Positions 5,137-60,331 of a stretch of 64,000 nt of DNA are shown piece after piece (position 1 is the stretch's first letter; each line of letters starts with the position of its first letter). The stretch comes from Kiritimatiellia bacterium (lineage in GTDB: Bacteria > Verrucomicrobiota > Kiritimatiellia > RFP12 > UBA1067). Made by a program: the position numbers and the translations under genes. The stretch covers positions 1,856,001 to 1,920,000 of the forward strand of contig JBMNFY010000017.1 of assembly GCA_050949565.1 (NCBI GenBank), given 5' to 3'. The notes beneath the pieces are model-generated. The model was not told the origin of the DNA, ran no database searches, and saw only the letters and a list, made by a program, of their open reading frames with translations.

Positions 5137-8100
5137 TCACCGGAGCATCATAAATGTTCCCTGTGACCCGGTTGTGTAGAGCCAGCCGCCGCGCAGACTC
5201 ACGCGGTCTGTCGCATCGCCCCCGACCAGCACGAAGTTCACCTCGTCCAGATTCGCGATCGTGGCACCGCGGAAATCCACCAGATTCATGCGACCGGCGG
5301 GGATCGGGCCATCGACGACAATCATGACAGTCGACGGCAAGGTCAACGCGCCCGACAACGTCAGCACAGCTCCCGGCGTGAAGGTCCAGGTGTCGCCAAC
5401 GATAGCAGCCGCACTCCCCGGCGCGACCGCCAACGTGCCGTCACCGCGCACGATCAGATCGCCGAGGTGCAGGAACACGCAGTCAGGATCGGTGCCTGCG
5501 GCCGGCTGGAGCGTGAGCGAAGCGCCCTCGTTGACGGTAACGTCACCCACGATGAGCGGCAACCCCTCCGCCAAGGGCGAGACGGGTTCAATGGTGGAGG
5601 CCGTGCCGACGGCCAACTCCAGCGCGTTGGTGAAGCTCCGCGCCGCTTCACCGGTGTACGAGAAGGTGAAGGCGTCGATGAACTGCTGCGCGTAGTTGCC
5701 ACCCGTACCACCGACGATCCCCAGCCAAGCCGGTGTGCCCAGCTCAGCAAGTTTCGCACCGGCGTTTTCGTTGGTCATGCTGTAGACGTTTGCGCCTTGC
5801 TGCATGTCGATGACCATTGTCGTGCCGTCAAAGGTCATGCGCGCGTTGAACGCTCCCCGGTTTTGGCTGAAGAGCGTGCTATTAGCCCGGCCGGCCAGCG
5901 CTCCGTTTTCAATCCATGCCAGATAACAATCCCCCGGCATCAGGTAGTACTGGAAACCGAAGCTGGGCGAGTAAGGGGAGACGATTTGCCACCATCCGCC
6001 GGTCGGCAGTGCATTCGTACCGCGCGGGTCGTTCTGGAAGAAGACGCCGAAGCCGTCGCCCGGACTGGTGGTGGAAACCCCCTTGCGGAACGTGAGGTCG
6101 ATGACCCACGGCTCGGTGGCGACCACTTGCTCGCGGTAGTAAGCCGCGCCGCGTTTGTTGGCGACGTTCGGCGTCAGCTCCAGGATCGTACCACCTTGGC
6201 CATCATCCACAAAGCGCGTCACGCCGGTGGTCACCCACATCGTGTCGTCGAAACCCAGAGCGCCGCCGTTGTTGAGCAGCAGTGTACCGCCTTCGAGCAG
6301 CAGGCTCTGGCTGTCGGTAAGGCCTCCGCCGTCAACCAGCAAAGATGCGCCCGTGCCAACATGCACCGCGCCGCCGCCGGAGATCGGCGCACGCAAGCGG
6401 AACGTCCCGGGCGTGTTGAAGACCAGCGTACCTTCGTTGTGGATTTCCCCTGCCATCGTCACTGTGCCCTCGACCGCCGCGCCGTCGAGGATCACGGTCT
6501 GTCCGGCGGCGACCTGCACGCCGCACGAGACCGCGCCCGTCAACGTCAGCGTGCCGGGCCCCTCGTTGCGCACCACGCCGTCACCGCTGATCGCACCGCC
6601 GAAGACGAGATTCGTCGGGCTGCGGAACACCAGTGTGCCGCCCGCGCGTGTCTCCACGGCGGCATCCGGTGCGAGGCATCCCCCTGACAGTCCGTCAATG
6701 ACCAGTTCGCCGTCATACACGGCCCAGTCGCCGGGGTACGCGCTCAAGTCTGTGGCGATTGTCAACGTTGCGTCGCCGCCCTTGGCAATCACGCTGTCGG
6801 TCGTGCCGCCGGTCAGCGTGCCCGCGAACGCGCCTTCCGTCGTCTGATCGATGTACAGGCGGGTGCGCCCCGCGAGCGTTACGTCGCCTTCCGCCGCGAC
6901 ATCCAGCGCGCCGATCAACACCGGGGCCGCCGCCGTGCCGCCGCTCGCCGTGAGCGTCCCGGCCACGACATCGAAGGCCCCTGTGTGCGACACGCCCGGC
7001 GCGAGCGTGATGCCGCCCTGCTCAATGCGCGTGGTCCCGATAAAGCTACTGGTCCGCTGCAGCGTGATGACGCCGACACCCTGCTTTTCGATCACGGCGT
7101 CCGTCGCGGCCGCGCCGCTGAACGCGCCGAGGGTGGTGTCTTCCGCTTGATCCACAATCAGGTGCGCGAAGGCCTCGGCGCCCAGATTGCCGCCAGCCGT
7201 GCCGTCAACACCCACGATCCTCGTGGGGTATGCACGCAGCAGACGTTGCGACAACGCGACCTCGGTTCCGCCGGGCGGCGTCATGTGGAGGCGCACCACT
7301 TGCAAACCGCCATTTTCATAGAAGAAAACGATGATGTCGTGCCAGCCTTGTGTCAGCGAGACGGAACCTGTGGCCCAGCCGCTGCCGGTCCGGTTGTTCA
7401 CGACGAGTTGTCCGTTCAGAAAGATCAGGCAGCCGTCGTCGGCAAAAACCCGGAAGGTGTAGGTGCCGGCTTGCTCCGCCAAGAACTGGCCGGTCCAGCG
7501 TACCGCGAATTTGTCGACCGAGCCGCTATATTTGCCGGGGAAGTACTCGCCGCTGGTACCCGAATCAAACGTCTCGCCGAAGCTACCCGATCCGGCGATC
7601 AACGCCGGAGAGAGCCCCGCCAGAACCGCGTCCACCGCCTCCGGCGTAGTGCCCAGCGTCGGCCAAGTACCGCCGGTGGTGCCGGTGAAGGCGTTGTCGT
7701 AATACTCGCCGCGCAGTCCTTGGTAGCCCAGCGCCGCGACGGTCGCGTTCTGCGCGATCGTCACGCCGTTGGTCAATGCCGTGCCGACATTCAGCGCGAG
7801 CGTGCCGGCCGCGACCGTCACCGGCTCGGGCGTCGGGCATAGGCGTGGTTCAGCGTGAAGCGCCCCGTGCCGATCTTGGTGAGCGTAAGGGGCGGTGCCA
7901 GACTGCCGCTGAAGATCGAGTCCAGCGTGTCGCAGCCCACCTGCACCTCCAGCGCCGTGCCGACCGAGTTGGTCACGCAACCGCCGCCGGTCAGACCGTT
8001 GAACGTTCCCGCCCAGCCGTTGATGTCCAGCGCCGCGTTCCCCCCTAGATCGACGACACCGTAGCCTGCGCCGTGCGGCAGCGCGTCGGCGACGCCGTAC

Positions 8101-10977
8101 CGCAGCGTGCCGGCCTCGACCACCGTGTTGGTGGGCAGGTAGGCATGGGTGTTGGCGGTGGCCAGCGTTATTGTGCCGAGCCCCTTTTTGGTCAGGATGC
8201 CCTTGCCCGAGAAGGTGTCCTCGAAAGTGTCCTCGGCGCCGTTGTTCAGATAGAGCCAGCCGCGCGATCCCGTGCCCACGATGCCGCCGGTGGAGGCCCA
8301 CGAGAAGTTCGTGCCGTTGCCGATCATCATCGCGCCCCACGATCCTTCAAGCTGCACGCGCCCTTGGTAACTGTTGTTGGTGCCGGCAAACGTGACCCAG
8401 CCCATGTCCGTCATGCGCAGGGTGGCGTTGCCCGTGATGTCGCCGGGGATCATCAACTGCGCCGGCAGGCCGCCCGAGGCATGGATGCGGCAGGTGCCGT
8501 TGAAGGCGATACCGCGCGTCGGCGCCAGCGTGACGAATTGAGTTTCTGTGCGGAAGACGCCGCTGTCGAATACGACGTTCGATGGATCAAAGACTGCGGG
8601 CACGGTGCCGAAGCCGCGGTCGCCCATGATCACGATCTTGCCGCCGTTTTCCACGCGCGTGCCGCCGGAGTGGGCGGCGCTGTTACGCGTATCCACCACG
8701 CCCTTGCCGCGGATCAGCACGCGGCGCGGCGCGCCGCCCGCGCCGTCGGTCAAGTTGGTGATCACAAAGCCGTAAGCACCGTCGCCGACATCGATGCCGG
8801 TGTTGCCAAGCAGATAGGTGTCGCCATAGGGCGTGAGCGTGCCGGTGAAGTAACTTTTGACCGAGGTGTTCTCGGTGCCCGTGAAGAGATTCGGCGTGGC
8901 GGAAAGATCCAGCGTGTTGGTCAGTCCCGCGCCGCTGAGCTGCAGTGAGACATCTGGGTCGGCTGCGATGCGATTGAAAAAGGCCGCATCCGCGAGCTGA
9001 CACTGCACGCGCAGCACCGTGCCGCTACGGCAGACGATATCCGCCGTGTCGGGCGTTCGCGCACCGAGAGCGTTGGCATGCGCCATCACGATGCCGCCCG
9101 ATTCGAGCAGCGTGCCGCCGGTGTAGGTGCTGTCACCCGCGAGTCTCACGAACCCGTTCACCGTGCCGTTGACTTCCACCCGTCCGGGGACACCGGGCTT
9201 ATCGGCGATCGGTTGTTCATAAGACAGCGTACCGCCGCGCGGTGTAAAGCGATACAGATTGGTGTACGGCGTCAATGTGCCGGTATAGGTGAAGGAGCTA
9301 TCCGCACTCAGCGTCACACCGGGCAACGCCGAGAGGTCGATCGCGTCCGCCGCATTGGCGGCAAACAGCATGAGGATTCCGGCGGTTTCCGGGGTGAAGA
9401 GCGATGCCAGCGTTGTGGCGCCGCCGCTCTTGTTCCAGCCGATGGTGGCGTCGTTGGCCAGCGTGACCGGCGCGGCGTAACCGGCGGGCAGGGCATTGGC
9501 TGCAAGCGTGAGAGCGCCGCCGTTGACCGTGAGCGGTCCCGTGATCGTATTGGCACCACCGAGCGTGAGCGTGCCCGCGCCCTCTTTGACAAGGCCGCCG
9601 CCGGGGCTGCTTGCGTCTTCGAGCAGCGATTGATTGACGCTGACGGAAATATTCTCCGGCACATGGAAGGCGATCCCGCCGTCCTGCACCTTGGCGCTGG
9701 TGAGCCCCTGCAGGTGATCGGTGGCGTTGCCCACCGCTTGGAGCGTGCCGCCGTCCGCGATCAGCGTGGCGCTGCCGTCCCCGCGCACCACACGCTGCGT
9801 GATAAGCTTGCCGCCCGCGCCGAGCGTCAGCGTGGCGCTTGCGCCTGAGGTCATCGCCCAGACGCAGTGTATTGGCGCCGATGTCGAAGGTGCCGCCCGC
9901 CAGCGTGAGCGCGAAGGCGCTGCCCGCGCCGATGCCGGCGCGCACGTAAGCGCTGTTGGCGAAGGTCGGCAGCGCGGTGAAACGTCCGTCGGAGAGCGTC
10001 ATGCCGCCGTGTGCTGCGTGCCACATGCCGGTGTAGACGCCGTTCGCGTAGGGCGCACCGTCATAGACCGCCGTGCCGCCCGAGCCGAGATACACCGGCT
10101 GCCCGGCCGTAGGCGGCGTACCGGCCGCCCAGTTGGCCGCATCGTTCCAAGCCGCGGTGCCGGTGGTTTGCCACATGCCGCCGAAGCGGCCACCCTCGAC
10201 CATGAAATTGTGTTTCACATCTTCGGCGCTGAGCGTGCCGTCATGCACGCGCACCACCGCGATCGCGCCGCTGAGCGGATAGCTCCAGCCGCTCGAGGTG
10301 TCCACCGCGCCGACCGCGAACAACGCATTGTTGGTAGCGAGATTGAGCATGTAGGTACCGCCCATATCCAGCGTGTTCACCAGCCGTCCGTCGAGATAGA
10401 GGCGATTGATGCAGGCCGCGTCGCGGGTACAGGCTACGTGGTGCCACTGCCCGTAAGCAGGCAGACCGATGTTCCAGCCGATGTTGCGCGCCCAGTGTTC
10501 CACCGCGTTGTTGAGGTCGGAGCCGTAGCGCATCTCCATCATCCGGCGCTCTCCGCCGTCGCGCCGCGAAGTCCAAGCGAGGAGCGTCTCGATACCGGTA
10601 CCGACCGGATTGTAGACCCAGACTTCGGCCGACCAAGCATTTGTGCCGAGGATGCTCAGAGGCACACCGCCCTTGGTGGCATTGCTTGTGTGTCCGGCCT
10701 GCGCCATCGCACATCCGGACGTGCCGTCGAACCACAAGGCCACCGCGCCGCCGACATTCGCCGCATAGGTGGCACCCTGGCCGGCGACCGCCGGTACGAA
10801 ATTATTCAGCGTCCCCGCATTCGGCCAAACGGTGACCTTATCGCCGTCAGCCAATCCCGTTACCTGCGCCGCGTCCAGATGAACGAACAGTTCGCCCGCC
10901 GTGCGGATCGCCTGCGCACTTGCGCTCATGATCCCCGCGCACACAACACCACATACCCACCGGTGACTTACTCGCAT
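5137..10977 (-). CDS. ~1946-aa secreted adhesin-like protein: LamG-like domain, autotransporter-associated beta-strand repeats, PA14 and L-type lectin-like domains; two compensating frameshifts (~9855, ~7838)
   Basis: Three consecutive ORFs (9298..11016, 7818..9854, 5137..8340) join into one protein. Signal peptide MRVSHRWVCGVVCAGIMSASAQA; WHHVACTRD..LYLDG (LamG); GLVKEGAGTLTLGGANT repeats; GLRGEYYDN..FAVRWTGQFLAEQAGTYTF..ADDG (PA14); ELTPNVANKRGAAY..GDGFGVFFQND (lectin). Ends GTFMMLR; no beta-barrel. Confidence 0.8.
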
Positions 10978-11027
10978 ACTTTGCCTTTCCTCGTGATGAA
11001 AATCCACACCATTCAAGTCTCGGTAAC

Positions 11028-11056
11028 AGTATGCGCCTTTGATCCAAGCGTGTCAA
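11028..11056 (-). promoter_or_regulatory. Sigma70-type promoter for the adhesin gene
   Basis: Minus strand reads TTGACA-17 bp-CATACT, about 50 bp upstream of ATG 10977. The -35 overlaps the palindrome TCAATGCACATTGA. Confidence 0.6.
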
Positions 11057-11066
11057 TGCACATTGA

Positions 11067-11340
11067 ACGGTAATCGTTAGTGCCAGGGGGGAAGAGTTAT
11101 CGTGTCGGGGTACGTGAGCGAGTGTGTGCACGGGGGTGGCCAACGTTCACGTTCTCCAAATCGGTATCGGTATCGCTATCGGGTTCGAAATCGACTGTTG
11201 CGCCCACGCAGTGGCTCGCAGCGGCGAGTGTAATGATGGCGGCGATACCGATCCCGATACCGATAGCGATACCGATGGTGGCGCAATGGAACCCTGAAAC
11301 GCATGATCTTCGCACTCCCTTGTCACTAACCGATTATCGT
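11067..11340. repeat. ~274-bp MITE-like element with imperfect terminal IRs and internal inverted (ATCGGT/ATCGCT) hexamer tracts
   Basis: Left end acggtaatcg-ttagtgccagggg matches the reverse complement of the right end, acgataatcggttagtgacaaggg. Inner tracts 11160-11187 and 11243-11276 are inverted relative to each other. The terminal motif recurs at 5107-5130. Confidence 0.7.
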
Positions 11341-11422
11341 GGAAGCCGGGCGTCCTTAAAAACCTAAAAAATCTCATCTGAAAATGATTCACAAACCGCG
11401 CCTGATCTGCTTTGATATGGTC

Positions 11423-12807: not shown

Positions 12808-12810
12808 GGC

Positions 12811-16383: not shown

Positions 16384-16394
16384 TGGATTCCCTT

Positions 16395-18374
16395 TCATGC
16401 AGCGTGAAAGCGGCTGGCGTTCGGCAACGGCATGTCCAGCAGATCGGCTAACGCACGCAGCAGTTCGGTTTCGTCCACGGTCAGCATGCCGTCGGCGCGC
16501 ATCACGAATGCGCAGGCGTTCAGCAGTTCGCCCTTAAAGAGTGGTGTGAGGCCATCAAGCCGTTGCACGGCGGCCTCCCACTGGGTCAGCGTGCAATCGC
16601 GCCGTGCCGGCATCGGCAGCCGGTCGACGCGGAAGGAGGTCGCGCGCGCCACACCTTCACGCCATGCTGCTTCGGCGGCGGCGTCATCGTGCGGCTGCCC
16701 CAGATAAGCCATCACGCCCAACACGGTCGCGGCCTCGGCCTGTACCCGCGCGGGCGGCAGCGGCTTGCCGTAGAAGCCGCGCCTCACGCTGGTCGACGAT
16801 AACGCGCGCTGCATGCGTCCGAGCAGCAGGACTTCGAACAGCGAGCGCTCATGGTCTGCATCCGCCAATTCGCGAGCCAGCGCTAGACAGGTCTCGCAAC
16901 CGGCGGACGGACGCTGCCGGACCCCCTCAACCGCCAGATCCAGCAGTTTGCGGCGTGCGGTGCGGTCTAAGCTCCGCAGCGCGTCGTACCAGCGTTCGGC
17001 AGCCGTGGCTAGCGCGGTTGTCTCTGTGACGGCGATCTGGCTGCGCTGACGTTGGCGCACGTCCTCATCTTCGCTCAGTAGCAGCCCGTAAAGCGCGGCG
17101 GCGGCATCGTCGGGGCGGACCAGTGTTTCGCGCAGACCGGGATCAAGCGTAGGCAATACCACGGTGGCCGTCGGAATTTCCGCCGCCTCGGACAACGCTG
17201 TGTCCGCCGCTGATGCCAGGCTCAGTTCTGAAGCGACTCCTGCCGCAGATGGAGGCACAGGCGGGGGTGCCGGTGGCGGAGGCGGCTCATTTCCTTTTGG
17301 TGGTTTGCGCCACGGCTTGAAGTTGCCCGTAAATTCGGGGTCCAACTGTTGGATACGCTCCAGTAGCGGCGGATGCGTGGCGAAGAGCTTGTCTACTGTG
17401 CCGGCCGAAAAGAGCAGGTGCGAAAGCTCGCTGCGGTTGGCACAGCGCATCTCGCTGCCATGTTGCGATGCGCCGATCCGCTTGAGCGCGCCGGCCAGTC
17501 CCATAGGATTACGCGTGAACTGCACGGCAGAGGCATCCGCCAGATATTCGCGCTGGCGCGACACCGAGGCCTGAATTAACCGTGCGAAAAGGACCCCTAT
17601 GCTGCCGATCACCCAGAGCGCCAGCCCGGAAAGGAACAGGATCAACAGAGCACCGCCGCCATTGCCTTTCTTATCGTCCGACGAGCGTGCGTAGCGCAAC
17701 GAGCGCATCAACTGGTAGCCCAGGATCGAGGTCACCAAGATGCCAAAAAGAATGCTGAGCAGCCAACAGTTGAGCCGCATGTCGCCATTTTTGATGTGAC
17801 TGAATTCATGTGCGACCACGCCATGCAGTTCTTCGCGCGACAGCCGTTCCAGCGCGCCGCGCGTCACGGCGATCGCCGCATTGTGCAGCGAGAAGCCTGC
17901 CGCAAAGGCATTGATGCCGCGCTCCTTGTCCAGTACGAAAACCCGCGGCACCGGCACGCCCGAAGCCAGTGCCACCTCCTCCACGATATTGAGCAGACGC
18001 CGTTCCAGAAACTCTTTGACATAACCGGGAGCGATCTCGCGACCGCCGGCCGAACGTGCCACCGCCGCGCCGCCCCCCGCCAGCGAGATGCGGCGATAGA
18101 GCGTACCGCCCCCGATGATCAGCGCGCTGATCCCGGCGGTCACCAACATCCAGTGCGGATCCCACGCGAACACCCGGATGCCGGCACGGTCTTGATCCAG
18201 CGTCTGCCGCTCCTCTGTTTCCTCCTCGTCACGCGACAGCTCCACCGCGAGCACCGCAATCGCTCGCGAGGCGAGGTAGAAGGCGCAGACAATCAACACC
18301 ACGGCTGCCGCGTAGTATACGAGCAACACGCGCGTCCGGCGGCGGGCGGCTTCCTGGCGGGCAAAGAAGGTCAT
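16395..18374 (-). CDS. M48-family (HtpX-like) zinc metallopeptidase, copy A
   Basis: INAFAAG, VVAHEFSH (HExxH), SRQREYLADA and LFATHPPLLERI; C-terminal TerB-like tail; downstream of lemA. Confidence 0.9.
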   Translation of the reverse strand: MTFFARQEAARRRTRVLLVYYAAAVVLIVCAFYLASRAIAVLAVELSRDEEETEERQTLDQDRAGIRVFAWDPHWMLVTAGISALIIGGGTLYRRISLAGGGAAVARSAGGREIAPGYVKEFLERRLLNIVEEVALASGVPVPRVFVLDKERGINAFAAGFSLHNAAIAVTRGALERLSREELHGVVAHEFSHIKNGDMRLNCWLLSILFGILVTSILGYQLMRSLRYARSSDDKKGNGGGALLILFLSGLALWVIGSIGVLFARLIQASVSRQREYLADASAVQFTRNPMGLAGALKRIGASQHGSEMRCANRSELSHLLFSAGTVDKLFATHPPLLERIQQLDPEFTGNFKPWRKPPKGNEPPPPPAPPPVPPSAAGVASELSLASAADTALSEAAEIPTATVVLPTLDPGLRETLVRPDDAAAALYGLLLSEDEDVRQRQRSQIAVTETTALATAAERWYDALRSLDRTARRKLLDLAVEGVRQRPSAGCETCLALARELADADHERSLFEVLLLGRMQRALSSTSVRRGFYGKPLPPARVQAEAATVLGVMAYLGQPHDDAAAEAAWREGVARATSFRVDRLPMPARRDCTLTQWEAAVQRLDGLTPLFKGELLNACAFVMRADGMLTVDETELLRALADLLDMPLPNASRFHAA

Positions 18375-18384
18375 GGCCGTTCAA

Positions 18385-18975
18385 TCAGAAGCGCACCTGC
18401 GGTGCCTGCCGTTCGGCGTCCGACTCCAGTTCCAGCGACTGCGCCGCCGCGAAGTTGAACATCGAGGCGATCAACGAGCTAGGAAACACCTCGCGGCGGG
18501 TGTTGTAGGCCATGACCTCGTCGTTGTAGGCCTGACGGGCGAAGGCGATGCGGTTCTCGGTGGAGGCGATCTCCTCCTGGAGCTGCATCATATTCTGGTT
18601 GGCCTTGAGGTCGGGGTACTGCTCCACCACCACCATCAGGCGGCCAAGCACACCGCGCAACGCGCCTTCAGCGCCGGCCAGCGCACGCATGGCCGCACCG
18701 TCGGTCGGCGCGGCGGCGGCAGCATTGGCGGCGGCGAACGCCTGGTTACGCGCCGCGATCACGGCTTCGAGCGTCTCGCGTTCGTGCTTCATATAGCCTT
18801 TGGCGGTCTCCACCAGGTTGGGGATCAGGTCATAGCGCCGCTTCAATTGCACATCGATCTGGGCGAACGCATTTTTGAAGCGGTTGCGCGCCTGCACCAA
18901 TCCGTTGTACACGCCGATTGCCCATCCGGCGAGCACCACCAAAACACCGATCACGATTAACAACGTCATGCTCAT
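18385..18975 (-). CDS. lemA: LemA family protein
   Basis: YNGLVQARNRFKNAFAQIDVQLKRRYDLIPNLVETAKGY, EQYPDLKANQN and TENRIAFARQAYND. Confidence 0.95.
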   Translation of the reverse strand: MSMTLLIVIGVLVVLAGWAIGVYNGLVQARNRFKNAFAQIDVQLKRRYDLIPNLVETAKGYMKHERETLEAVIAARNQAFAAANAAAAAPTDGAAMRALAGAEGALRGVLGRLMVVVEQYPDLKANQNMMQLQEEIASTENRIAFARQAYNDEVMAYNTRREVFPSSLIASMFNFAAAQSLELESDAERQAPQVRF

Positions 18976-19039
18976 ACATGCTTCCTTTCTGTTTGTGCTT
19001 TACCGGCGCACAAGAGTGAACCTCTCTCCTTACGGGAGA

Positions 19040-19069
19040 AAAATACCATTCCCGATCTTGCCGCGTCAA
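19040..19069 (-). promoter_or_regulatory. Candidate sigma70 promoter for lemA
   Basis: Minus strand TTGACG-18 bp-TATTTT with a TG extended -10. Confidence 0.4.
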
Positions 19070-19089
19070 GGATGCCGCCGCATTTTCCG

Positions 19090-20970
19090 TCACACGGCCT
19101 GAAAACGACTGTCATCCGGCAGCGGCATGTCCAGCAGATCGGCCAGCGCGCGCAGGAGTTCTGTCTCATCCTCGGTCAGCGTGCCATCGGCGCGCATCAC
19201 GAATGCGCAGGCATTCAGCAGCTCACCCTTAGAGAAAGGCGTGAGGCCGTCAAGTCGCTGCACGGCGGCTTCCCAATGGGTCAGCGTACAATCACGACGC
19301 GCTGGCATCGGCAGCCGGTCGACGCGGAAGGAGGACGCATGTGACACGCCTTCGCGCCATGCCGCTTCGGCGGCGGCGTCATCCTGCGGCTGTCCCAGAT
19401 AGGCCATCACCCCCAGCACGGTTGCGGCCTCGGCCCGTACCCGTGCGGGTGGCAGCGGCTTGTCGAATAAAGCACGCTTCACGCCGGCTGACCACAGTGC
19501 GCGCTGCATGCGCCCGAGCAGTAAGACTTCAAACAGCGAACGCTCGTGATCCGCATCCGCCAGCTCGCGGGCCAGCGCCAGGCAAGACTCGCGACCGGCG
19601 GGCGGTCGTTGCCGAACCCCCACAGTCGCCAGGTCCAGCACTTGGCGGCGTACCGTGCGATCCATGCCCCGCAGTGCGTCGTGCCAGCGTTCGGCGGTTG
19701 TGGCCAGCGCGGTCGTTTCCGCGACGGCGATCCGGTTGCATTGGCGGCGGCGCACGTCCTCGTCTTCGCTCAGCAGCAGCCCGTAAAGCGCGGCGGCGGC
19801 ATTGTCGGGGTGGACCAGTGTTTCGCGCAGGTCGGGATCGAGTGTGGGCAGTACAACGGCAACCGTCGGGATTTCCGCAGCCTCGGACGGTGCCGTGCTT
19901 GCTGATGTCGGGTTTGCGGTAGCATCCGTCGCCGGAACAGGTGCGTCCTCTTGCGGCGACTCGCTCCACGGCGTGAAGTCGCCCGTGAATCCGGGCTCCA
20001 ACCGCTGGATGCGCTCCAACAGCGGCGGATGCGAGTCGAAGATCTCGTCTGGTGTGCCGGCCGAAAAGAGCAGATGCGAAAGCTCGCTACGGTTGGCGCA
20101 GCGCATCTTGTTGTCGTGGCTTGATGCGCCGATCCGCTTGAGCGCGCCGGCCAGTCCTGCAGGGTTGCGCGTGAACTGCACGGCAGAGGCATCCGCCAGA
20201 AACTCGCGTTGATGCGATACTAAGGCCTGGATCTTCTGCGCGAACACGACTCCCACGCCACCGATCAAACAGATCACCATCCCCAGGATGACCATGTCGT
20301 TGCTGTCGTCCTCCATGATAAAGTTGCCCAGGATCGAGGTCGACAAGATGCCGAAGAGGAGGCTCAGCAACCAACTGTTGAGCCGCATGTCGCCATTTTT
20401 GATGTGGCTGAATTCATGCGCGATCACGCCGTGCAATTCCTCGCGCGACAGCCGTTCCAGTGCGCCGCACGTCACGGCGATCGCCGCGTCGTGCAGGGAG
20501 AAGCCCGCCGCAAAGGCATTGATGCTCCGCTCCTTATCCAGCACGAAAACTCGCGGTACCGGTACGCCAGAAGCCAGCGCCACCTCCTCCACGATATTGA
20601 GCAGACGCCGCTCAGGAAACTCGAGGGAACGATCGGGGGTGATTTCACGGCCGCCGGCCGAGAGCGCCACCGCCGCGCCACCCTTGGTCAGCGAGATGCG
20701 GCGATAGATTGTGCCGCCCACGATGAACACCGCGCTTACCCCGGAGGTCATCAGCACCCAGACAGGATTCCACACGAACACCCGCATATAGGCGCAATCC
20801 GGCGAGTATCGTTCCCCCGACATGAGAAGCAGCAGATTCATCAAGAGTGCCGCAAGCCCCCGCAGGATGATATAGAAGGCGCAGACGGTCAGCACCACGG
20901 CTACCGCATAATACAAGAGCAGCACATACGTCCGGCGGCGGGCGGCTTCCTGGCGGGCAAAGAAGGTCAT
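19090..20970 (-). CDS. M48-family (HtpX-like) zinc metallopeptidase, copy B (diverged paralog)
   Basis: Collinear with copy A; keeps IAHEFSH, HQREFLADA and SHPPLLERI; loop and TM segments differ. Confidence 0.9.
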   Translation of the reverse strand: MTFFARQEAARRRTYVLLLYYAVAVVLTVCAFYIILRGLAALLMNLLLLMSGERYSPDCAYMRVFVWNPVWVLMTSGVSAVFIVGGTIYRRISLTKGGAAVALSAGGREITPDRSLEFPERRLLNIVEEVALASGVPVPRVFVLDKERSINAFAAGFSLHDAAIAVTCGALERLSREELHGVIAHEFSHIKNGDMRLNSWLLSLLFGILSTSILGNFIMEDDSNDMVILGMVICLIGGVGVVFAQKIQALVSHQREFLADASAVQFTRNPAGLAGALKRIGASSHDNKMRCANRSELSHLLFSAGTPDEIFDSHPPLLERIQRLEPGFTGDFTPWSESPQEDAPVPATDATANPTSASTAPSEAAEIPTVAVVLPTLDPDLRETLVHPDNAAAALYGLLLSEDEDVRRRQCNRIAVAETTALATTAERWHDALRGMDRTVRRQVLDLATVGVRQRPPAGRESCLALARELADADHERSLFEVLLLGRMQRALWSAGVKRALFDKPLPPARVRAEAATVLGVMAYLGQPQDDAAAEAAWREGVSHASSFRVDRLPMPARRDCTLTHWEAAVQRLDGLTPFSKGELLNACAFVMRADGTLTEDETELLRALADLLDMPLPDDSRFQAV

Positions 20971-21140: not shown

Positions 21141-24100
21141 TCAACGCAAAACCATCACGGAGCCGCTGACGTAGAAGAGCTTCAGCGTGCCATCCGCTGA
21201 CGGTTTAACCTGCCAGTGGCTATTGGGCCTGTTGGTCCAGTCCAGCGCACCGGAAATCGTGTTGCCACCGCTGACCGTCGCGATGGTGTACTGCTTGGCG
21301 GTATCCAACAACTCGGGGTTGGCGACGGTCAACGTTGCGCCCGCGCCGAAAGTCAGCGAACCGTCGAGCAACAGGCGGTCGTTGCCAGCCGCAGCGATAT
21401 CGATCAGCAAAGCACCGGTCAGGGTCGTGTCGCAGGCGAGCGTCAAGTCGCCGACTGTGCCCACGCCGCCGGGCGCGAGCGTGCCGGTCACCATCAGCGT
21501 ACCGTTGCTGACCGCACCGCTGCCGCTCAGTGTAGCGAGCGTCGGGGCACATCCGTTCAGATCGAGCCCGGCCCCTTCAGCGATCACCAGCTCGGTGCCG
21601 ACGGACAGCGGGCTTTCGCCGGTCAACTCGGTGGTCAGCAGTGAGCCGTCACCGGGGTCGGTCAAGGTTACGAAATACGCGATGTTGGTTTCGTTTCGCC
21701 CGTAGAAATCCACGCCGAAACCGAACGATGTCGTCGTCCACCATTGCGATTTGACTGGGCCGCCACCGCCACCACCCTGGCCGAAGCGTGCCTCAAAGGC
21801 GTGCGGACCGGGTGTCAGCGTGTACGAGCCGATCGTCGGAACGTTCCACGAGACGCCATTGGCGATCACCGTCACGCCGTCGATCGTCAGCTTGACGTTA
21901 TCGTCAAAGTTTTCGGCAAATGTCCAGGTCTCGTTCGTCGGCGACCGGTTCCAGACATAACCCTTGTAGATCCATGTGGTGTAGTAGGGCTCCGTATACA
22001 CGATATTGGCCATGCGGGTCGTGAGGCGCGTGACGATGCTGGTCGACATCGCCTCGGTGGTATTGAAGGCACCGGCCACCGGAGCTTCGTACAATCCCGG
22101 CCGGGCGCCGCGGAGTTGCAACACGCCCTCACTGATGACGATCGGTGTTGTAGCGTCGATGCCCGTCGCGATGGTCAGCACCTTCTCGCCGACCTTGGTA
22201 AGGCCGTCGCACCGCAGGTGCCCGTCGGCGAGCAGACCGCCTTCGGCCGTAACCACACCGCCTGTGACCGTGAAACCGCCGAGACTCAGGACGCCACTGG
22301 CCAGTACGATATCGGAGCCCTCCGGCAGTGCGCCAGCCACATCGAGACTCAGCGTGCCGTTGCTGACTGTCGTCGCGCCGCCGTAGGTGTTGGCCGCATT
22401 CAGCAAGAGCGTTCCGGCACCCAGCTTGGAGAGGCCGCCACTGATGTTGGCACCGAGTGTGGCGGTCGCGGCGTTATGGGTACTGACACCGCCGCCGGAG
22501 AGCGTCACGGACGGAGCCGAGGTGTAGCCGAAGCCCGGGCAGGTCACTTGGATGCCGCTGACCGTGCCGCTCTTCGAATCAAACGTCGCGATGGCCGTCG
22601 CACCGGTACCGCCGCCGCCCTCAATCGTGACCATCGGCGGCCCGATGTAGCCGCCACTCGGTTCCACGGTGATGCTGGCTACGCCGCTACCGGCCGGCGC
22701 CTGCAATGGCACATCGATCGTCCCGTTCCAGTCGGCGGTATCGAACGCCGCGCCGTCTGCGTAGACATGCACAGCATCTGGAGCGTTGGCACCGGTGTTG
22801 AAGACTTTGCCATTCTGGCGCATCAGGAAGGTGCCGCCGTCAAAGTTCACATAGGCGGCGGATCCCGTGCGCGATGACGACTTCGTGATCATCGACGCGC
22901 TGACCGTGCCGCCGTTGAAATTGGCGATCGCCAGCATGTTTGTGCGGTCGGCCATGTTGATCGTTCCGTTGATTCTGACCTGCGCGTCACCGTCCGCCGT
23001 GAACACCGCAAACCCGTTTTGTAAGCCATTGTCGCTGGCTTCTCCCACGCTCAAATATGACGCTGTATTGAATGTACCGCCGACCGTGTGCACCACAGCG
23101 GTGCCGCCGCGGCTGAGGCCCAAAATTCCGGCATAGACGTTGCCCATCTCGAAGGCTCCGCCGGTCTGCCGCAAGATGCCAACGCTGTTGACGTTACGCC
23201 CGAGATGAAAGTAGCCCATGTTTGTGAAGGTCCCGCTGTTCAGTTCATAGTAGCCGTATCCAGAGAATCCGATACGCCCGTCACTGGCGCATCCTCCCCA
23301 GTTGTGCATGACGCCGCCATTCTGATAGACCGCGCCGTGGCTGCTGCTATTGTTGCCGACATAAAGCCGCTGCGTGATAGAGGCATTGTCCTGAATCTCA
23401 AGAATGCCGCAGCCGCTTTGGCCGATCACCAGCGTCGACTGTGGCACATTGTAGGGATAGAGATAACCGCCCCACGCGGTGTTCCCGCCGACGGTCATAC
23501 GGCCGAAGTCACCCGCATTGTATCCGACATACGCCGAATTGTTGGTCACGTAGACGAACGTCGGCGCCGGATTGGTGAGGAACAGATGGGCATTGCCGAC
23601 GTATAGCGTACCGATCTCATGGTCGCCCGGTGCGTCGAACGCTAAAGCGCCGCCGTTAATCCGCGTGTGACCACGATAGGCGGCCTTGCCTCTCAGCGAA
23701 AGGGTCTGATCCCCCAGCTTGGTCAAACCCATCAAATTGGTGAAATCGTAGGTGTAGGCCAGCGGCGCGAGGCTGGTGTCGATTGCGAGGCATGCGTTGG
23801 CGCCCGTGAAGGGGGCGGCATCGTGCAGGTCGCGTATCTCTTCGGCGGTCCAGCCTTGCTCGCCGTTGCTGGCATGCATCGCGAGCGTGCTGTCGTTGAC
23901 CACCGTCACGCGTCCGTCTTTATAGCCCGGCAGTGAGCCTGTGTGTTTCACGTAGAGCGTGCCGTTGCTGATCGTGGTCGTACCGGCGTAACTGTTGGCC
24001 GTATGGTTGAGCGAGATCGTGCCTGCACCGACCTTCACTACGCTACCCGGTCCCGTGACCTCTCCATTGAACGAGGCGTAGCATGCGCTCGCCGCATCCA

Positions 24101-27051
24101 AACGTGCCTGGCCGTCCAGTAGCGTGACCGGACCGTTCCAGAAGTTCCGCGTGTTGTTGCCCAACCGGGCGTAGAAGCGGGCGTTGTCTTCCAGCACCAA
24201 ACTCCAAAGCGTGGGCGTCGTCATATCATAGATGTCGAAATACGCGCCGCCACGGACGGTCATCACATTGTTCTCATCGCCGCCCATATTGGTGCTGGCC
24301 TCGATCGTGAAGCTACCCTCCCGGATGTCGATCGCCGCTGCGGGGCCGCCCGGCGCGACGGACACGGAGGTCAACCCCACCATGTTCTGACCGACTTTGG
24401 TGAGGGTGTGGTTGTTCATGGTAAGTGTCGAGGTGCCGTTGACGTTGCGCAGATCCCAGCGTCCGCTCTGCACACCGCCGAAGGTCGTGTCGCCCGCGAG
24501 CGTGACAATGCGCAATGCGTTGAATTGCGAGATACCGGAATTGTTGACAATTGCGCCCAGACCGTCGACCCCCGCGCCGGTAACCGTGATCGCCTCGGCG
24601 TTCAGGTTCATGGCCTGGCCGGTCATCGAACCGCCCACGTCGAGCGTGCCGCCGTCCTCAATGAACGTGCCGGCTGCAGGCGAGCCGAGCGCTGCATTGT
24701 TTGACGCCAGCACCATGCCGCTCTTGATGACAGTCGGCCCAAGGTAGGTGTTCGCGCCGGTCAGAACCAGCTTGCCCGATCCCTCATGAGTCAAGGTGCC
24801 GCCGCCTGAGATGACGCCTGCAATCGTTTGCGTCACGCTGCCGCCGAAAGCCAGCGTACCCGCGCCCAGAGCGGTCGGTCCGGTGTAGCTGTTGGCTGCC
24901 GTGAGCAGTGCCTTGCCAACGCCGTCTTTCGCGAGGCCTGCGGCTGCGCCGTTGTCTGCGATAGACGCATTGACCGTCAGCACGGCTGCGGCGTCATCAT
25001 TTTGCAGGATGACGTTCCCGCCCGACGCGAGCGGCGCGAGGAAGCCGTCGCCAGCGGCCTCACCGACCGTAACGGAAGCCTTGTTCTCTCCGATGAAGAG
25101 GGCGTCCGTACGCAGGGTTTTGTGAGTACCGTTCTCCTGGGTGGCGATCACCGCCGGCGTGGCGGTATTTTGACGGATGTAACGGATACTGTTGGCCTGT
25201 GCGCCCGCTAGCGTGATCGCGCCGACCGTGCCGTCGCTATCGATCTCCGCACCGAGGGCCGCATCGTCAGGGATGACGGAATTTGGTCCACGCGCTGCGA
25301 TGGAGGTAGTCGCCGCGCCTGATGAAACGTGCAACCCGTTGACCGCATCATAGGCCACCATGCCTTGGCCGTTGATCGTGATCCACGATCCGATCAATCC
25401 CGCAGGCTGTCCGGTGATGAAAATCCGTGCACGGTCGCTTGCGCCGATATCGGCACCCGTGATGTTGAGCGTGCCACCACCGGCGCGGGTCAGGGACGCG
25501 AAAGTCAGCGTGGCACTCTGTCCCTGGGCGGCTGGCGTGAAGGCCAGCGTACTGGCGTTGTGCCGCACGGTGAGCGCACCAGCCGTCTCGCTGAAATTCG
25601 CCGCGCTGCCGTCGTTCTCGACACTCAGCGTGCCGCCGTCCAAAATGATCGACGATGCGTCGCGCAGACGGTTGCCGTTGTTGGCGGTGGCGGTATTGAC
25701 CAAACGTAGCGTCGCGCCGTTGGTGATTGTGTAGGATGCAGAAGAAGCGATTGCACCGGCCGCACCAGAGAGAATGAGTGTGCCCTCCTCGATGGCGGTC
25801 GAGCCACTGTAGGAACTCGCCCCTGAGATCGTCCACGTGCCGCTGCCGCGTTTGATCAACGTGACCGTGCCGGAATCATTCATGATACCGCCGCTGAACT
25901 CGCCGGTGCCGTCAGTCGAGCCCTGCAGAATCAGGGTCTTGCTACCGCTTGTGGCACCGGTGGCGCGCGTAAAGAGCAGGTGGCCGCTGCCGCCCTGCTC
26001 GATGGCGCCTCCTCTGTGGAGTTCCACCAGACGGTCGCTGGTGCTGCCCGTGCCGAGGTAGAGATAACGGCAGTCGGCGTGGTTGAGAATGACACTGCCG
26101 CCGGCCCCCAGACTGCACGGGGTCGAGCCGTTGGCGATGGTGTCGAATGCGATCGTGGCGGGTACGTTGATGATAGTGCTCATTGTGTAATCATTCGCCG
26201 GATTCATCAGTGCGATCGTCCCGTAGTACGAACTGTGCCAGAACTCAAAACCTGTCGCCCCGGTCAGCTTGGCGTTGATGGTAAGGGTCTTGCCGTTGGC
26301 CGCACCGTTGTCGAGATGGTTGTTGCCTCCAGCGGTGCTCAGGAAAATCGATCCGGGGCCATTGATCGTACAGTTTCCAGCCGCCATGATACCGCTGCCG
26401 CCTGTGTTACTCACGGTCAAGGTCGTCCCGGCGCCGAGATTGATGACGCCGTCCGCCGCGTTGATCTGAATCTGCCGGATGCTGGTGTTGCCGTTCAGAT
26501 TGACCACGCCGGAGGAGTTGTAGGTGATGTCAAGCACGCTGGAAGCGCGCTGCAGCGGTCCATCCACCGTGATCGTGCCGACGCCGTTCAGATTGAGCAT
26601 CTTGGTGCCGCCGCTCATGCCGCCGATCGCGCCGACAGTCAAGGTCCGCTCTGCATGGTCGTTACGCAGCGAATAGGCCGCGTTGGCCGAGTCGGGGCCC
26701 AGACGCAGCGTGGTGTTGAGCGTTTGGCTTGCGCCGGCCGTGTCGGTGATGCGGACCTCGCCGCCATCGCGCAGGATGGTGGTCTGGCTGGTTCCGATGC
26801 CGATCGTGTATGCGGCGACCGACGCCGTGTCGAACACGATATTTAGGATGCCGGGGAGCCCCGCCGTGTTGATCGTTGTGTTCGCGCTGGCTCCCGAGAA
26901 GGTAGCGGTGTCTCCGCCCGACGGATAGGGCGACGCACTCCAGTTGGCGCTGTCGGTCCAGTTGGCGCTTTGTGCGCCGCTCCACGTTCCGCTGGCGGCG
27001 TACGCACTCAGGCAGGCTCCCAGCAAGGTGACGGTAACGAAGACATCCAAT
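21141..27051 (-). CDS. ~1970-aa secreted autotransporter-associated beta-strand repeat protein with PA14-like domain; native start removed by the IS
   Basis: Many LxKxGxGTLxLxxxNTYxGxTxV repeats; WIYKGYVW..WTFAENFDDNVKLTIDG..FEARFGQGGG (PA14-like). Signal h-region VFVTVTLLGACLSAYA begins right at the IS edge. Ends GSVMVLR; no beta-barrel. Confidence 0.85.
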
Positions 27052-28500: not shown

Positions 28501-28505
28501 GCGAA

Positions 28506-28573
28506 GTTGACCGTTGAGCGGTCAACAGGCGATGTGGTACTATCACGTAAACGTTTGGACTATCACGGAGGGG
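28506..28573 (+). promoter_or_regulatory. rhaB promoter/operator region (repeated at +2997)
   Basis: Palindrome GTTGACCG-ttgag-CGGTCAAC; TTGAGC-18 bp-TACTAT with TG; direct repeat ACTATCACG x2 (20 bp apart) around an AAACGTTT core; SD GGAGGGG. Confidence 0.5.
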
Positions 28574-28575
28574 TT

Positions 28576-31473: not shown

Positions 31474-31497
31474 CCAGATTTTTTGGGGAAACTCCTT
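30550..31497 (+). mobile_element. 5'-truncated IS copy (transposase 3' part + IRR only)
   Basis: Matches 27553-28500; lacks IRL and the first catalytic Asp. Confidence 0.9.
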
Positions 31498-31572
31498 GCG
31501 AAGTTGACCGTTGAGCGGTCAACAGGCGATGTGGTACTATCACGTAAACGTTTGGACTATCACGGAGGGGTT

Positions 31573-49394: not shown

Positions 49395-49398
49395 GTAA

Positions 49399-53594: not shown

Positions 53595-53617
53595 ATGCCA
53601 TAAACACCAAACACAAG

Positions 53618-53718: not shown

Positions 53719-53730
53719 ACAAGGTCAACT

Positions 53731-56124: not shown

Positions 56125-56131
56125 ACAACGA

Positions 56132-57034: not shown

Positions 57035-57128
57035 TATTTAATCCCTCGGCTTGCCTTTGTCGATTTATACTTGTGCCCTAATTACGTCGTGTTCTGTTTG
57101 TAAACTCACAACCGAAAGGAGACAGAAG

Positions 57129-60100
57129 ATGAAACATCAAAAGCAGTCGTTAAGTTTCATTACAATCGGACTCGCGAGCATTTGCACGATGCTGGCCGGA
57201 GGTGTCGTCGCATCGCTGCCGACACCGATGGCGTGGTTCACGATGGCCGAAGTCGAAGGGGCAGGAACCGTTATCGACGCATCCGGGAACGGGCGCAATC
57301 TCACCTTAGGGGCGAACGTGCAGATTGTCGACACCGAGCGGCACGGCAAGGCACTCAAATTCAGCGGCACGACGGCTGACTGGGCGCGGTTCTCCTGCCC
57401 CGCAGTCACGAACACCACGATTTCGTTCTGGCTCAACCGCGATGCGCAGGACAGTTCAATCACCAATGCCTCCGGCACCGAGTTGAACACGATTCCCTAT
57501 TTTCTCAATACCGGCTATTCGGGGTTCGGTATCAACTACGGAAGGAACACCGAAAACATATCGTTTATCAATCAAGCTAACAGTCCGCAGAGTAATTTTT
57601 TGGCTTTCGATGTATTGGCCAGATTGGCTTGGCACCATGTGGCGATTATCGTTGAACACATAGGGACGGACACAGTGAGCGGTTTCGAGATCCTGAAGTG
57701 TACCTCTTGTCGCGACGGATATTTTTACAAAAGTATCGTCTGGACGAACAATGCGGCGATGCGGACAGGTACCCAGACCGCCACGATCGGTAACAGCGGT
57801 GCCGGCGGTAATCGCCCGATCTCTGGTCTGATGGCCGACATCCGTTTTTACGATCAGGCACTGACCCCCGCCCAAGTTGTGCAGGTTGCCTCAGAGGGCG
57901 GCGGTGCTGGCGCGCCCGAGCTGGTCATGCACTGGCCCTTCGACGAGATGACCGCGAATGAGGACGGCACATTCACGACGCCCGAGGCCACCGGTAGCGG
58001 TGCCACCATGACGTTGGGGGAGAACATGACGCTCGTCGACGACGGGGTCATCGGCAAGGCTCTGTGTTTCAGGGGCACGAGCGGTCTCGGCGGCAGGGCG
58101 ACGTCGATCGATCGTCCGGTCTACGAATATACGGCCACATGCTGGGTGCGGCGTTCGAGTCAGGCTCATCTGTACGACGCACTGGTCGATAAGCCCTATC
58201 CGCGTCTTTTTGACAGCTTCACCTCTTCGGGTGGTGGCGGTTACTGCATTTTTGAAGATCTCGCCGATAACGGCAAGGGCTTTTCCCTGATGCCGGCCGG
58301 GGCGGGCACCACGTTTAAGGCCGTACTTGGCACGCGCTCTCCGATGTCGATGTGTGGAGTCACTTGGCCATGGTGACGCGTTACATCACGGAGGGCGCTG
58401 ACGCAGGCAAGGGCATCATCGATTTTTACGTGAACGGGGAGCCGGTCCATTCATACGATCTCCAGGCTGTGTTCAATCTGGTGCCAGTGCAGGCAGGTCG
58501 GGTATTCTGGGTTGGCAATGCAAACAGCGGGTACGATGGCAACCGTTATTTCTGTGGCGAGTTTGACGATTTTCGCATCTACGATGGCGCGCTATCGTCC
58601 AACGAGGTTAGGCGCATCTCCCGTGGACTGGCGGCGATTTCCGCCGGATCGGACTTCACCGTCACCGGAGACTCGGCGGTTCTGGCCGGTACGGTCGGCA
58701 ATCAAGCCGAGGGCACGTTGCGCAAGGGGTACGCCGGTACGACGGCATGGTCGCTCGTTTCGGCACCTGAGGGCGGGGAGGGTGCTGTCATCCTCCAGCC
58801 GGAAGCCGCGCTCACGTCTGTCACGTTGCCAGTCGCGGGAGAGTACGTCTTCCGCCTCACGATTTCCGACCTTGGTGCCTCGATGTCGGATGACGTCACG
58901 GTGACCCGCGTCGTCGAGGATACCGCCAACACAGCACCGACCGTTTCGCTGGCGGCGATGGCGGCGATGGCGGCGGTCACGCTGCCGGCGCCTCTGGAGC
59001 TTACGGCGACCGTCTCCGACGATGGCAGGCCGGCACCAGCGGCGCTCCGCACGCGCTGGACCAAAAAGTCAGGCCCCGGCGGTGTGTGGTTCGAGCCTGC
59101 GGACGCCGTGTCGACCAAGGCGTATTTCTCGGTCGGCGGCACGTATGTCCTCACCTGTTGCGCGGATGACGGACAGGCGCAGACGGCCTCCGACGTGACG
59201 GCGACGGTGGCGGACGCTGCGGACGGTGACACGCTCACGAACGGCCTGACGCGTTGCTGGACGCTGGAGGGGCATGCCCTGCCGTTCGGTACGGATGCGG
59301 TGACGGGCACGCCGATAAGCAGTGCCCCGGACTATGTGACACGTGTCTATCTGCCGGGCAGGCTCGGAAACGGCATCCGCTGCATGGGCGCACACCTCTC
59401 TTACTTCAACACCGGACTATCCTTTGCGGAGACCAAGGATCCGGCCATGACCCAAAACTGGTGGCCTGTGGAGCAGTACCAGACCATCAGCGCGTGGATT
59501 AAGATCGACTCCACAGACACCAACGAGGTGTTGGGTGCAAACATCCTCATGCAGCCGTATACGCTCGGCATCCGCTACAACGAAACAGGTACGTCCGCGC
59601 AGACGGGCGGCTTCTGCATTCATCAGCAGGGTGCCCTTGATACGGGCGGGATTAACATCGGTTGGGCACGGTATTTCTATCCCGCGCCGACGGTGAGTCC
59701 TGTCGATCGTTGGATGCACATCTGCGCTGTCGTCGACCGTCGTGAGGGGGAGGACATGGAGATGTGGTATGACGGTGTCAAGCAGACGCGGCTGAACACG
59801 GGTTCTGCTCGCGGTCGTGTAAATGGCAACAAAATCCTGCTTGGTGGACATGACAAGGCGGACGGAAACGACTACAACGGGTGCTGGACGAACTCCGTTT
59901 CCGGCGGGTTCTACAGCCGCACCTTTCCCGGCGTGATCGACGAGGTGCGCATCTGGACGCGCAAGTTGTCGGAGGGTGAAATCCGCTATCTGGCGGCGAA
60001 CCCGGTGATCGACCCCAATCGTGCGCCGACGATTGACGTGCCGGATGTGCCGCCACGGATGGTGGAGAAGCGCGTTACGGCGGTAGCGGCGGCTGTGTTT

Positions 60101-60331
60101 GATGATGCATTGCCCACAGGTAGTGTGCTGACGTATGCGTGGAGTGTACTTTCGGACAATGCGTCCGATGCTGTCTTCGGCGACGCGTCGGTGCGCGAGA
60201 CGACCTTCACCGCGTACGCGGCCGGTACATACAAGCTCCAGCTTGTTGTTTCGGACGGCGAGCGGACAACCTATTCGCGGATCTGCACTGTGGATGTGTC
60301 TACAGCGGGAACCCTGATCCGCATCCGGTAA
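57129..60331 (+). CDS. Secreted multi-LamG / PKD-like protein; frameshift near 58325
   Basis: Signal peptide; three LamG-like units (WHHVAI..ADIRFYDQALT, WSHLAM..DDFRIYDGALS, WMHICAV..DEVRIWTRKLS); PKD-like units (WSLVSAP..GEYVFRLTISD, WTKKSGPG, GTYKLQLVVSDG). ORFs 57051..58376 and 58352..60331 join. Ends GTLIRIR. Confidence 0.8.

Follow-up and report, generated by a model that had tools for sequence, protein, structure and literature searches.

A short C-terminal motif on large secreted proteins of a Kiritimatiellia bacterium: a candidate envelope sorting tag

Why should three large secreted proteins that differ in their domains end in much the same seven residues? The question is raised by a 64,000-nucleotide stretch of DNA, the whole of which was analysed and is called the window here; it lies in contig C17 of the genome (G000) of a Kiritimatiellia bacterium of anaerobic digesters, where public sequencing runs show it to be common. 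Kiritimatiellia are abundant polysaccharide degraders of digesters, guts and sediments. Three of the 40 open reading frames (ORFs) called in the window, genes 1, 2 and 3, carry what we call the tail, a terminal G-[ST]-h-h-x-h-R (h, hydrophobic) directly followed by the stop codon; the 37 others are without it. An earlier note on this DNA had reported the three termini, GTFMMLR, GSVMVLR and GTLIRIR, and had seen in them a recognition signal for an outer-membrane machine. The termini are read as reported, at 5137–5160 (reverse strand), 21141–21164 (reverse strand) and 60308–60331 (forward strand), and the tail is confirmed as a real and strong observation. The genes and their tails are:

5137–10977, reverse strand: gene 1, a large secreted protein with the Pfam domains LamG_3, PATR and PA14, ending in the tail
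5140–5160, reverse strand: tail 1, GTFMMLR, preceded by ...TTGSQ; stop codon 5137–5139
21141–27080, reverse strand: gene 2, a secreted PATR-repeat protein of 1979 amino acids, intact, ending in the tail
21144–21164, reverse strand: tail 2, GSVMVLR, preceded by ...FYVS; stop codon 21141–21143
57129–60331, forward strand: gene 3, a secreted protein with LamG_3 and K319L-like PKD domains and without PATR, ending in the tail
60308–60328, forward strand: tail 3, GTLIRIR, preceded by ...VSTA; stop codon 60329–60331

The description of these proteins in the earlier note stands for the most part. Their N-termini look like signal peptides, as judged by eye and from the translations only. Lectin-like modules, which had been ascribed to all three proteins, are present in genes 1 and 3 as LamG_3; gene 2 has no significant lectin domain in the Pfam scan and shows PATR repeats only (six PATR/TIGR02601 stretches, Pfam and NCBIfam). 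The end coordinate given for gene 2 was correct, while the start of 27051 was out by one base: in-frame TTG starts lie at 27080, 27050 and 27026, and 1979 codons are counted from the first of these. Gene 3 had been said to lack passenger repeats, and Pfam indeed gives LamG_3 and PKD with no PATR; its tail starts 3–4 residues past the last PKD strand. The secreted enzymes of the window had been said to lack the tail, and it is absent from all of the GH10, GH2-N/NPCBM, GHL10 and LamG+BNR proteins.

The ends of genes 1–3 are covered by no Pfam or NCBIfam model. Scans of the window proteins gave no barrel, PEP-CTERM-type tail or C-terminal domain of the type IX secretion system (T9SS), in agreement with the earlier note: the NCBIfam T9SS models had no match at E ≤ 0.01 on six protein pieces of the window genes, and NCBIfam run on five C-terminal stretches gave nothing at E ≤ 10 except an irrelevant TafC match at 0.18. 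The check for an existing Pfam or NCBIfam model, which that note had proposed, therefore returned none for the tail. Literature searches combining Kiritimatiell* with PEP-CTERM, exosortase or sorting signals found no paper describing it, subscription journals and supplements lying outside their reach.

In order to ask how common the tail is, the genome (4.66 Mb, 21 contigs, ∼60% G+C, 92% complete) was represented by 2801 ORFs (1,297,258 residues) called with a simple codon-usage model, a crude gene set. The strict motif, G[ST][FVLIM][FVLIM].[FVLIM][RK]$, stands at the C-terminus of 44 of the 2801 ORFs, where 0.04 would be expected from its internal rate (18 occurrences in the 1,297,258 residues) and 0.06 from composition. 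It ends 7 of 22,698 rejected ORFs. A loose core, G.hh.h[RKQH]$, is found at 71 ORF termini as compared with ∼1.5 expected; shuffling of the C-terminal 30 residues, repeated 200 times, gave it at 1.6 termini on average and never at more than five. Enrichment at the terminus is thus about 50-fold to 1000-fold. The register is equally sharp: of the strict motifs, 44 are exactly terminal, two fall just short of the end (offsets 1 and 3, one each) and 16 lie deeper, so that the Gly is fixed seven residues from the C-terminus. When the simpler pattern G-x-x-Phi-x-Phi (Phi as in the beta-signal consensus discussed below) was counted, 101 ORFs had it followed by a single residue (R in 55, K in 16 and Q in 10), 28 had it as the terminus itself and 34 had it followed by two residues. 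The positions of the 71 loose-core tails, numbered back from the stop codon, are occupied as follows:

Position −9: mostly P, S, A or N; Pro in 23 of 71
Position −7: Gly in 71 of 71, by construction of the motif
Position −6: Thr in 39 and Ser in 14 of 71
Position −5: L, V, I, M or F
Position −4: L, I, F, M or V
Position −3: variable
Position −2: Leu in 49 of 71
Position −1: Arg in 48, Lys in 13, Gln in 8 and His in 2 of 71

The conserved face of the tail strand is accordingly that of −2, −4 and −6 (Leu, hydrophobic, Thr), together with the last residue.

A terminal motif of this kind could simply be the last strand of one widespread domain. The 120 residues preceding the last ten of the 71 tail ORFs were compared by BLAST clustering, and fall into 36 clusters. 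Two of these are large modules, one of 18 sequences and one of 11; the others are eight pairs and 26 singletons. Some tails are placed after a Pro-rich linker behind a LamG domain. AlphaFold2 models of two unrelated families agree with this picture, in that the last strand of the domain stops before the tail and the tail is a coil of lower confidence. In a member of a tail-bearing family that we call L002 (578 residues, mean pLDDT 89), the last strand spans 555–567 and residues 568–578 are coil, with the final block at pLDDT 65; the model of the 200 C-terminal residues of gene 2 (mean pLDDT 85.8) has its final strand at 186–191, followed by coil at 192–200, where the tail lies. The models thus support what the 36 unrelated upstream contexts indicate and the earlier note had argued, that the tail is not the end of one common domain.

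Domain scans of 26 tail-bearing ORFs or pieces of ORFs identified LamG_3, PATR, PA14, PKD, F5/8-type-C, Big_5, NPCBM and beta-helix families, and no glycoside hydrolase among those scanned. Judged from these domains, the cargo appears to consist of exported, mostly non-catalytic proteins of the lectin or adhesin type. One carrier is a secreted mini-protein of 91 residues (C17:821905–822180, reverse strand), which has little beyond a signal peptide, a linker and a tail (...EKPQGLILFLR). Its gene lies 4 bases upstream of a member of a 22-member paralogous family, which, judged from the sequence by eye, looks like a formylglycine-generating enzyme.

Homologues show how the tail behaves over longer distances. 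For the last 200 residues of gene 2 there were 381 representatives, and tail classes were assigned for the 150 listed; 91 listed homologues were classed for L002 and 60 for a search with gene 3:

L002 family, 91 listed: strict motif 39; Gly at −7 with a basic or amide end 23; Gly at −7 with a hydrophobic end 4; PEP-CTERM-like 10; other 15
Gene 2, last 200 residues, 150 listed: strict motif 46; Gly at −7 with a basic or amide end 53; Gly at −7 with a hydrophobic end 34; PEP-CTERM-like 0; other 17
Gene 3 search, 60 listed: strict motif 20; Gly at −7 with a basic or amide end 26; Gly at −7 with a hydrophobic end 3; PEP-CTERM-like 0; other 11

Among those listed, Gly at −7 with a hydrophobic tail is therefore kept in 66 of 91, 133 of 150 and 49 of 60 homologues, respectively. 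The class ‘other’ consists of near variants in several of the 15 cases for L002 and in most of the 17 for gene 2, and for gene 3 of four near variants and seven distant proteins. Orthologues at 35–50% identity retain the tail. Since the letters vary freely but the pattern does not, and neither does its distance to the stop codon, the tail looks to be under selection as a recognised peptide, and the same constancy argues against a decaying relic.

The L002 family bears on what the tail may do. Its last domain ends ...QFDFHRLEV, and Kiritimatiellia members go on with, for example, AEAPKGTLIRLR and then stop. In twelve more distant homologues (twelve of those listed by eye, ten by pattern), the corresponding end is ...FDYHRLEV-FVPEPATLSLLG...RRRR, a canonical PEP-CTERM end; such homologues continue with FVPEPATLSLLGLSALALLRRRRRR and similar sequences, and some are labelled in their source as Planctomycetales or as ‘PEP-CTERM sorting domain-containing’. 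Haft et al. (2006; PMC1569441) define the PEP-CTERM signal by three elements: the PEP motif, a transmembrane helix and a cluster of basic residues. In both forms of L002 the seventh and eighth residues past the domain are Thr-Leu, and because these positions match, the tail occupies the place and register of the start of the PEP-CTERM signal. Its replacement of PEP-CTERM in orthologues argues for a sorting role.

Like the tail, the PEP-CTERM signal of the exosortase system (EpsH, XrtA; PF07589, TIGR02595) is a C-terminal tag carried by diverse, poorly characterised families of signal-peptide proteins, in many copies per genome. The two differ in construction. The tail comprises 7–9 residues instead of ∼25, lacks a conserved Glu-Pro (Pro is at −9 in only the 23 of 71 cases noted above), and has no transmembrane helix, 4–5 hydrophobic residues being followed by a single terminal R, K or Q instead of a cluster; canonical PEP-CTERM proteins of the same genome have ∼17 hydrophobic residues followed by RRRK or RRK.

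The distribution of the tail was assessed with DNA patterns, the reversed pattern serving as control. G-[ST]-h-h-x-L-R-stop has 17 matches in the window genome and none for the reversed control, and a looser pattern has 52 as compared with 4. Six genomes of the same genus have 5–12 matches to G-[ST]-h-h-x-L-R-stop, and up to 24 are found in another family of the order; in the genus and in several families of the order, matches far outnumber those of the control. When the strictest pattern was applied to 151 genomes across the phylum, more than two matches were found only in the order to which the window belongs:

G029: 24 matches
G000, the window genome: 12 matches
G109: 11 matches
G021: 3 matches
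G007: 3 matches

Eight genomes of one family of this order have none. Outside the order, no genome has more than two matches, whether among the 34 from the rest of the class or the 101 from other classes.

On balance we think it probable that G-[T/S]-h-h-x-h-[R/K/Q], often with Pro at −9, is a lineage-specific, free-standing sorting or docking tag of the cell envelope, which is read at the free C-terminus and functionally replaces PEP-CTERM. We infer that the tag is read, and with it the site of reading and the nature of the reader. The cargo would be exported by Sec to the periplasm, where some component of the envelope would bind the short terminal strand together with the free basic C-terminus; the most likely mode is beta-strand addition, with a protein of the outer membrane or the periplasm as partner. 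The cargo would then be routed by this partner to the cell surface or retained there, and the tag would substitute, in evolution and in function, for the PEP-CTERM anchor of related proteins.

The tag is carried by ∼70 large secreted proteins, ∼2.5% of the proteome. If the reading is correct, it would be the shortest C-terminal sorting signal in diderm bacteria of which we know. It would also give a handle on the machinery that reads it, in bacteria whose very large lectin, beta-helix and adhesin proteins have no autotransporter barrel, a simple annotation rule for the surface proteins of this lineage, and a way of testing beta-signal-like strands beyond barrel assembly.

Several observations weigh against this reading. 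First, no reader of the tail was found among the neighbour genes, with the exosortase profile or among the PDZ proteins of the window genome; of the proposal that the tail addresses an outer-membrane machine, the features of a sorting tag (enrichment, replacement of PEP-CTERM) are borne out and the machine is not. No gene family is enriched within two genes of the 71 tail genes, and a prepilin-like gene lies within that distance of none of them. The commonest neighbour, a 75-member TAT-signal family, is near 15 of the 71, where our own arithmetic from family size gives ∼11 by chance. Tail genes themselves never lie within two genes of each other, as compared with 6.8 ± 3.4 expected, a figure that is affected by ORF fragmentation. 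Membrane-tethered sigma factors bearing the tail were also considered; PF04542 finds just three sigma genes in this genome, and none is a tail ORF. Second, 39 of 41 relatives have an exosortase regardless of the abundance of the tail, the two without it being 81% and 88% complete, and it therefore does not discriminate; this distribution neither supports nor excludes the enzyme as the reader. The DNA patterns separate tail-rich from tail-poor genomes, but genomes negative by pattern are unreliable because variant tails are missed.

Third, the terminal Arg is not universal, because 34 of the 150 listed homologues of the gene 2 module end in a hydrophobic residue (L, M, Y or F). These variants (P0097, P0099, P0103, P0114, P0120 and others) keep Gly at −7 and often have Arg at −3, as in GTLIRVL and GTMIRIM; they might represent a form of the tag peculiar to some lineage, and its reader may co-vary. 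Fourth, the DNA patterns under-count variants, as in G022, which is negative for the pattern and has homologues ending GLVISIR and GMCVLVR. Restriction to the lineage, as claimed by the earlier note, consequently holds for the strict G-T...L-R form only. Finally, at least two of the 71 loose matches look like chance, a membrane protein and a prophage minor-capsid/PBECR2 protein, and a heuristic signal-peptide predictor was positive in 27 of 71 tail ORFs as compared with 43% of all ORFs; this predictor is too permissive and many of the ORFs are fragments. The prophage-type protein (C17:1393495–1395219, with Phage_min_cap2 and a PBECR2 nuclease domain) ends GTLVYVR, likely a chance match.

Of the alternatives, the one that survives best is a special case of the sorting tag with a named reader. 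The tail would be a stand-alone beta-signal that engages strand 1 at the lateral gate of BamA, so that barrel-less cargo is docked on BamA or passed through it. In two sources (PMC10945584; bioRxiv 10.64898/2026.09.25.754295), the outer-membrane beta-signal read by BamA has the consensus zeta-x-G-x-x-[aromatic/hydrophobic]-x-[aromatic/hydrophobic], and the second of these describes lectin-like bacteriocins that deliver a short C-terminal peptide binding BamA strand 1. The motif by its construction has an invariant Gly at −7 and hydrophobic residues at −4 and −2, and if one extra residue is allowed at the end, the tail matches zeta-x-G-x-x-Phi-x-Phi in register; the bacteriocins set a precedent for a lectin domain with a C-terminal strand on BamA. 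The window genome has one Omp85 gene that was found (BamA), and no match to the autotransporter barrel PF03797, for which the control matched in three reference genomes. A search for TpsB (ShlB, PF03865) also gave no match in this genome, but its control matched no reference genome either, so that this search shows nothing; LptD (PF04453) had no match in the window genome, a result that was not used.

Nevertheless, the tail departs from a beta-signal in ways that make this reading unlikely. It ends in R, K or Q, not in a hydrophobic or aromatic residue, it has aliphatic residues in place of aromatic ones, and position −5 is hydrophobic too, so that hydrophobic residues adjoin at −5 and −4. The genome's own barrels behave otherwise: its four TonB-dependent receptors end ...QASF, ...TFTF, ...GCDW and ...TYAW, with an aromatic residue at the very C-terminus and alternating hydrophobics. 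Nor is the tail preceded by a barrel; no barrel family appeared in the Pfam and NCBIfam scans of tail proteins, and the models show beta-sandwich ends followed by coil. Furthermore, if strand 1 of BamA were taken up by ∼70 abundant proteins, BAM should be inhibited, as it is by the Llp peptides. A complex prediction of BamA residues 345–792 with L002 residues 440–578 scored 0.00 in both runs, and since the controls were likewise not folded, it is evidence neither way.

The resemblance to lectin-like bacteriocins (LlpA/LlpB and L-type pyocins) extends to a lectin-type domain followed by a short free C-terminal strand in which the hydrophobic pair is not last. The bacteriocins, however, are toxins that act from outside on other cells, whereas the tail is borne by proteins that the cell itself exports by Sec, and their peptides are hypervariable, rich in aromatic residues and nearly always without Gly, whereas the Gly of the tail is invariant. 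A more general version, in which an Arg-capped single strand that is unable to enter the membrane docks by strand addition on a lateral-gate barrel (BamA or an unrecognised partner) and so pulls its cargo of large beta-helix and lectin proteins over the outer membrane or anchors it there non-covalently, is a speculation to which we give a low probability; if true, lateral-gate docking would be a route of secretion or anchoring distinct from types I–XI and from exosortase sorting.

As a putative C-terminal surface address, in being present in many proteins per genome and in being restricted to a lineage, the tail also resembles T9SS C-terminal domains (TIGR04183, TIGR04131) and the LPXTG, GlyGly-CTERM and PGF-CTERM signals. 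T9SS C-terminal domains are folded and of ∼70–100 residues, and the tripartite signals (LPXTG, GlyGly-CTERM, PGF-CTERM) carry a transmembrane helix; in contrast with both, the tail has only seven residues.

A further possibility is that the tail is a cut-down PEP-CTERM signal that is still processed by the exosortase. The window genome has one strong exosortase match, a 602-amino-acid fusion of Xrt with an EpsI-like protein in a polysaccharide-synthesis locus. The persistence of this enzyme alongside only three canonical PEP-CTERM proteins, its presence in nearly all of the 41 relatives alongside only 0–8 canonical matches in each, and the shared register in L002 orthologues would all fit tails that were its shortened substrates. 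Against this, the Glu-Pro of the PEP motif is absent from the tails, and with no transmembrane helix there is nothing to hold the protein at the inner membrane, where the exosortase is sited. The tails do not score with PF07589, whose three matches genome-wide include no tail protein, and which has no match on the three window proteins. The three canonical PEP-CTERM proteins, all small, coexist with the tail without intermediates; across the 41 relatives the numbers of canonical matches bear no inverse relation to tail counts, and genomes in which the pattern matches rarely or never have the exosortase just as often. We consider processing of the tail by the exosortase–EpsI fusion to be improbable. 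The fusion protein itself (C15:53403–55211, reverse strand) has a low-complexity linker to the EpsI-like periplasmic domain, which contains CxxC pairs; WecA-like and CapD-like genes adjoin, and the flanks of the locus hold a ‘RTQNSGRRTPNVEVG’-type peptide repeat in overlapping frames.

Equally improbable, in our judgement, is that the tail is a handle for processing or quality control by a periplasmic C-terminal or PDZ protease (CtpA, a tricorn-like S41 or a DegS/DegP-like protease), by which the tail would be trimmed, the protein degraded or its end sensed. The fixed distance to the free C-terminus does point to recognition of the end, and the genome encodes five PDZ proteins: a lipoprotein CtpA, a DegP-like protein, RseP, a membrane-anchored HtrA with one PDZ domain and a 1090-amino-acid tricorn-like S41 protease. 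What a PDZ domain usually recognises is the C-terminal residue together with that at −3. By this rule the tail is a poor ligand, because its −2/−4/−6 face is conserved and −3 is variable. The candidate proteases are, moreover, of housekeeping types rather than specific to the lineage, and a degradation signal on ∼70 large structural proteins would be hard to account for.

That the tail has no reader at all, being either a decaying relic of PEP-CTERM, as its register in L002 and the fruitless searches for a reader might suggest, or a self-acting sticky strand (for self-association or membrane adhesion), as a short aggregation-prone hydrophobic stretch between Gly/Pro and Arg might suggest, is the least probable account. 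A relic would hardly keep Gly at exactly −7 and the hydrophobic pattern across such divergent orthologues and 36 unrelated contexts, nor be so strongly enriched at termini.

In this assembly neither gene 1 nor gene 3 is in one frame. Gene 1 is spread over three frames (9298–11016, 7818–9854 and 5137–8340) with two indel sites, and gene 3 over two (57051–58376 and 58352–60331) with a shift near 58330–58350. Four other public runs, metagenomes from digesters, bioreactors and sludge (X1, X2, X10 and X17), have contigs over gene 1. In all four, one base is missing at 9851/9853 and two at 7837–7844, precisely the sites of the two shifts; three bases are thus lost in total, and a single frame is restored. 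At the junction in gene 3, the database protein P0243 (1044 amino acids, 98% identical to both halves) reads through. Each gene is thus a single intact gene in other data sets, and the frame breaks are not a general trait of the organism. Small indels seem to be numerous in this assembly, and because of them many tail-bearing ORFs are fragments without an N-terminus. Among 2068 pairs of adjacent ORFs on the same strand, 287 share 20 bases or more, in part owing to over-long called starts.

Other features of the window and the genome are recorded here in their own right. Directly between the GH10 gene and gene 2 (16395–20970) lie two paralogous genes that flank a gene for a 196-amino-acid membrane protein, with near-identical N-termini (MTFFARQEAARRRT...) and C-termini (...LDMPLP..SRF...). 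On the other side of gene 2, a unit of ∼3 kb is present twice in tandem, which looks like a duplication mediated by an insertion sequence or an assembly repeat. The components are:

16395–18374, reverse strand: paralogue of 659 amino acids
19090–20970, reverse strand: paralogue of 626 amino acids
27127–34086, forward strand: tandem unit of ∼3 kb, two copies
27127–28476: DDE transposase of 449 amino acids, ahead of the first kinase copy
28486–30081: FGGY-family sugar kinase of 531 amino acids, first copy
30097–31473: ORF whose C-terminus is that of the DDE transposase
31483–33078: FGGY-family sugar kinase, identical-looking second copy
33094–34086: ORF sharing its N-terminus with that at 30097–31473

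Elsewhere in the genome, secretin (PF00263) has six matches in about five genes (C4:44039, C17:185743, C18:13827, C17:1466114–1466756 and C17:757677), one of them split over two frames, which is many for a genome of 4.7 Mb.

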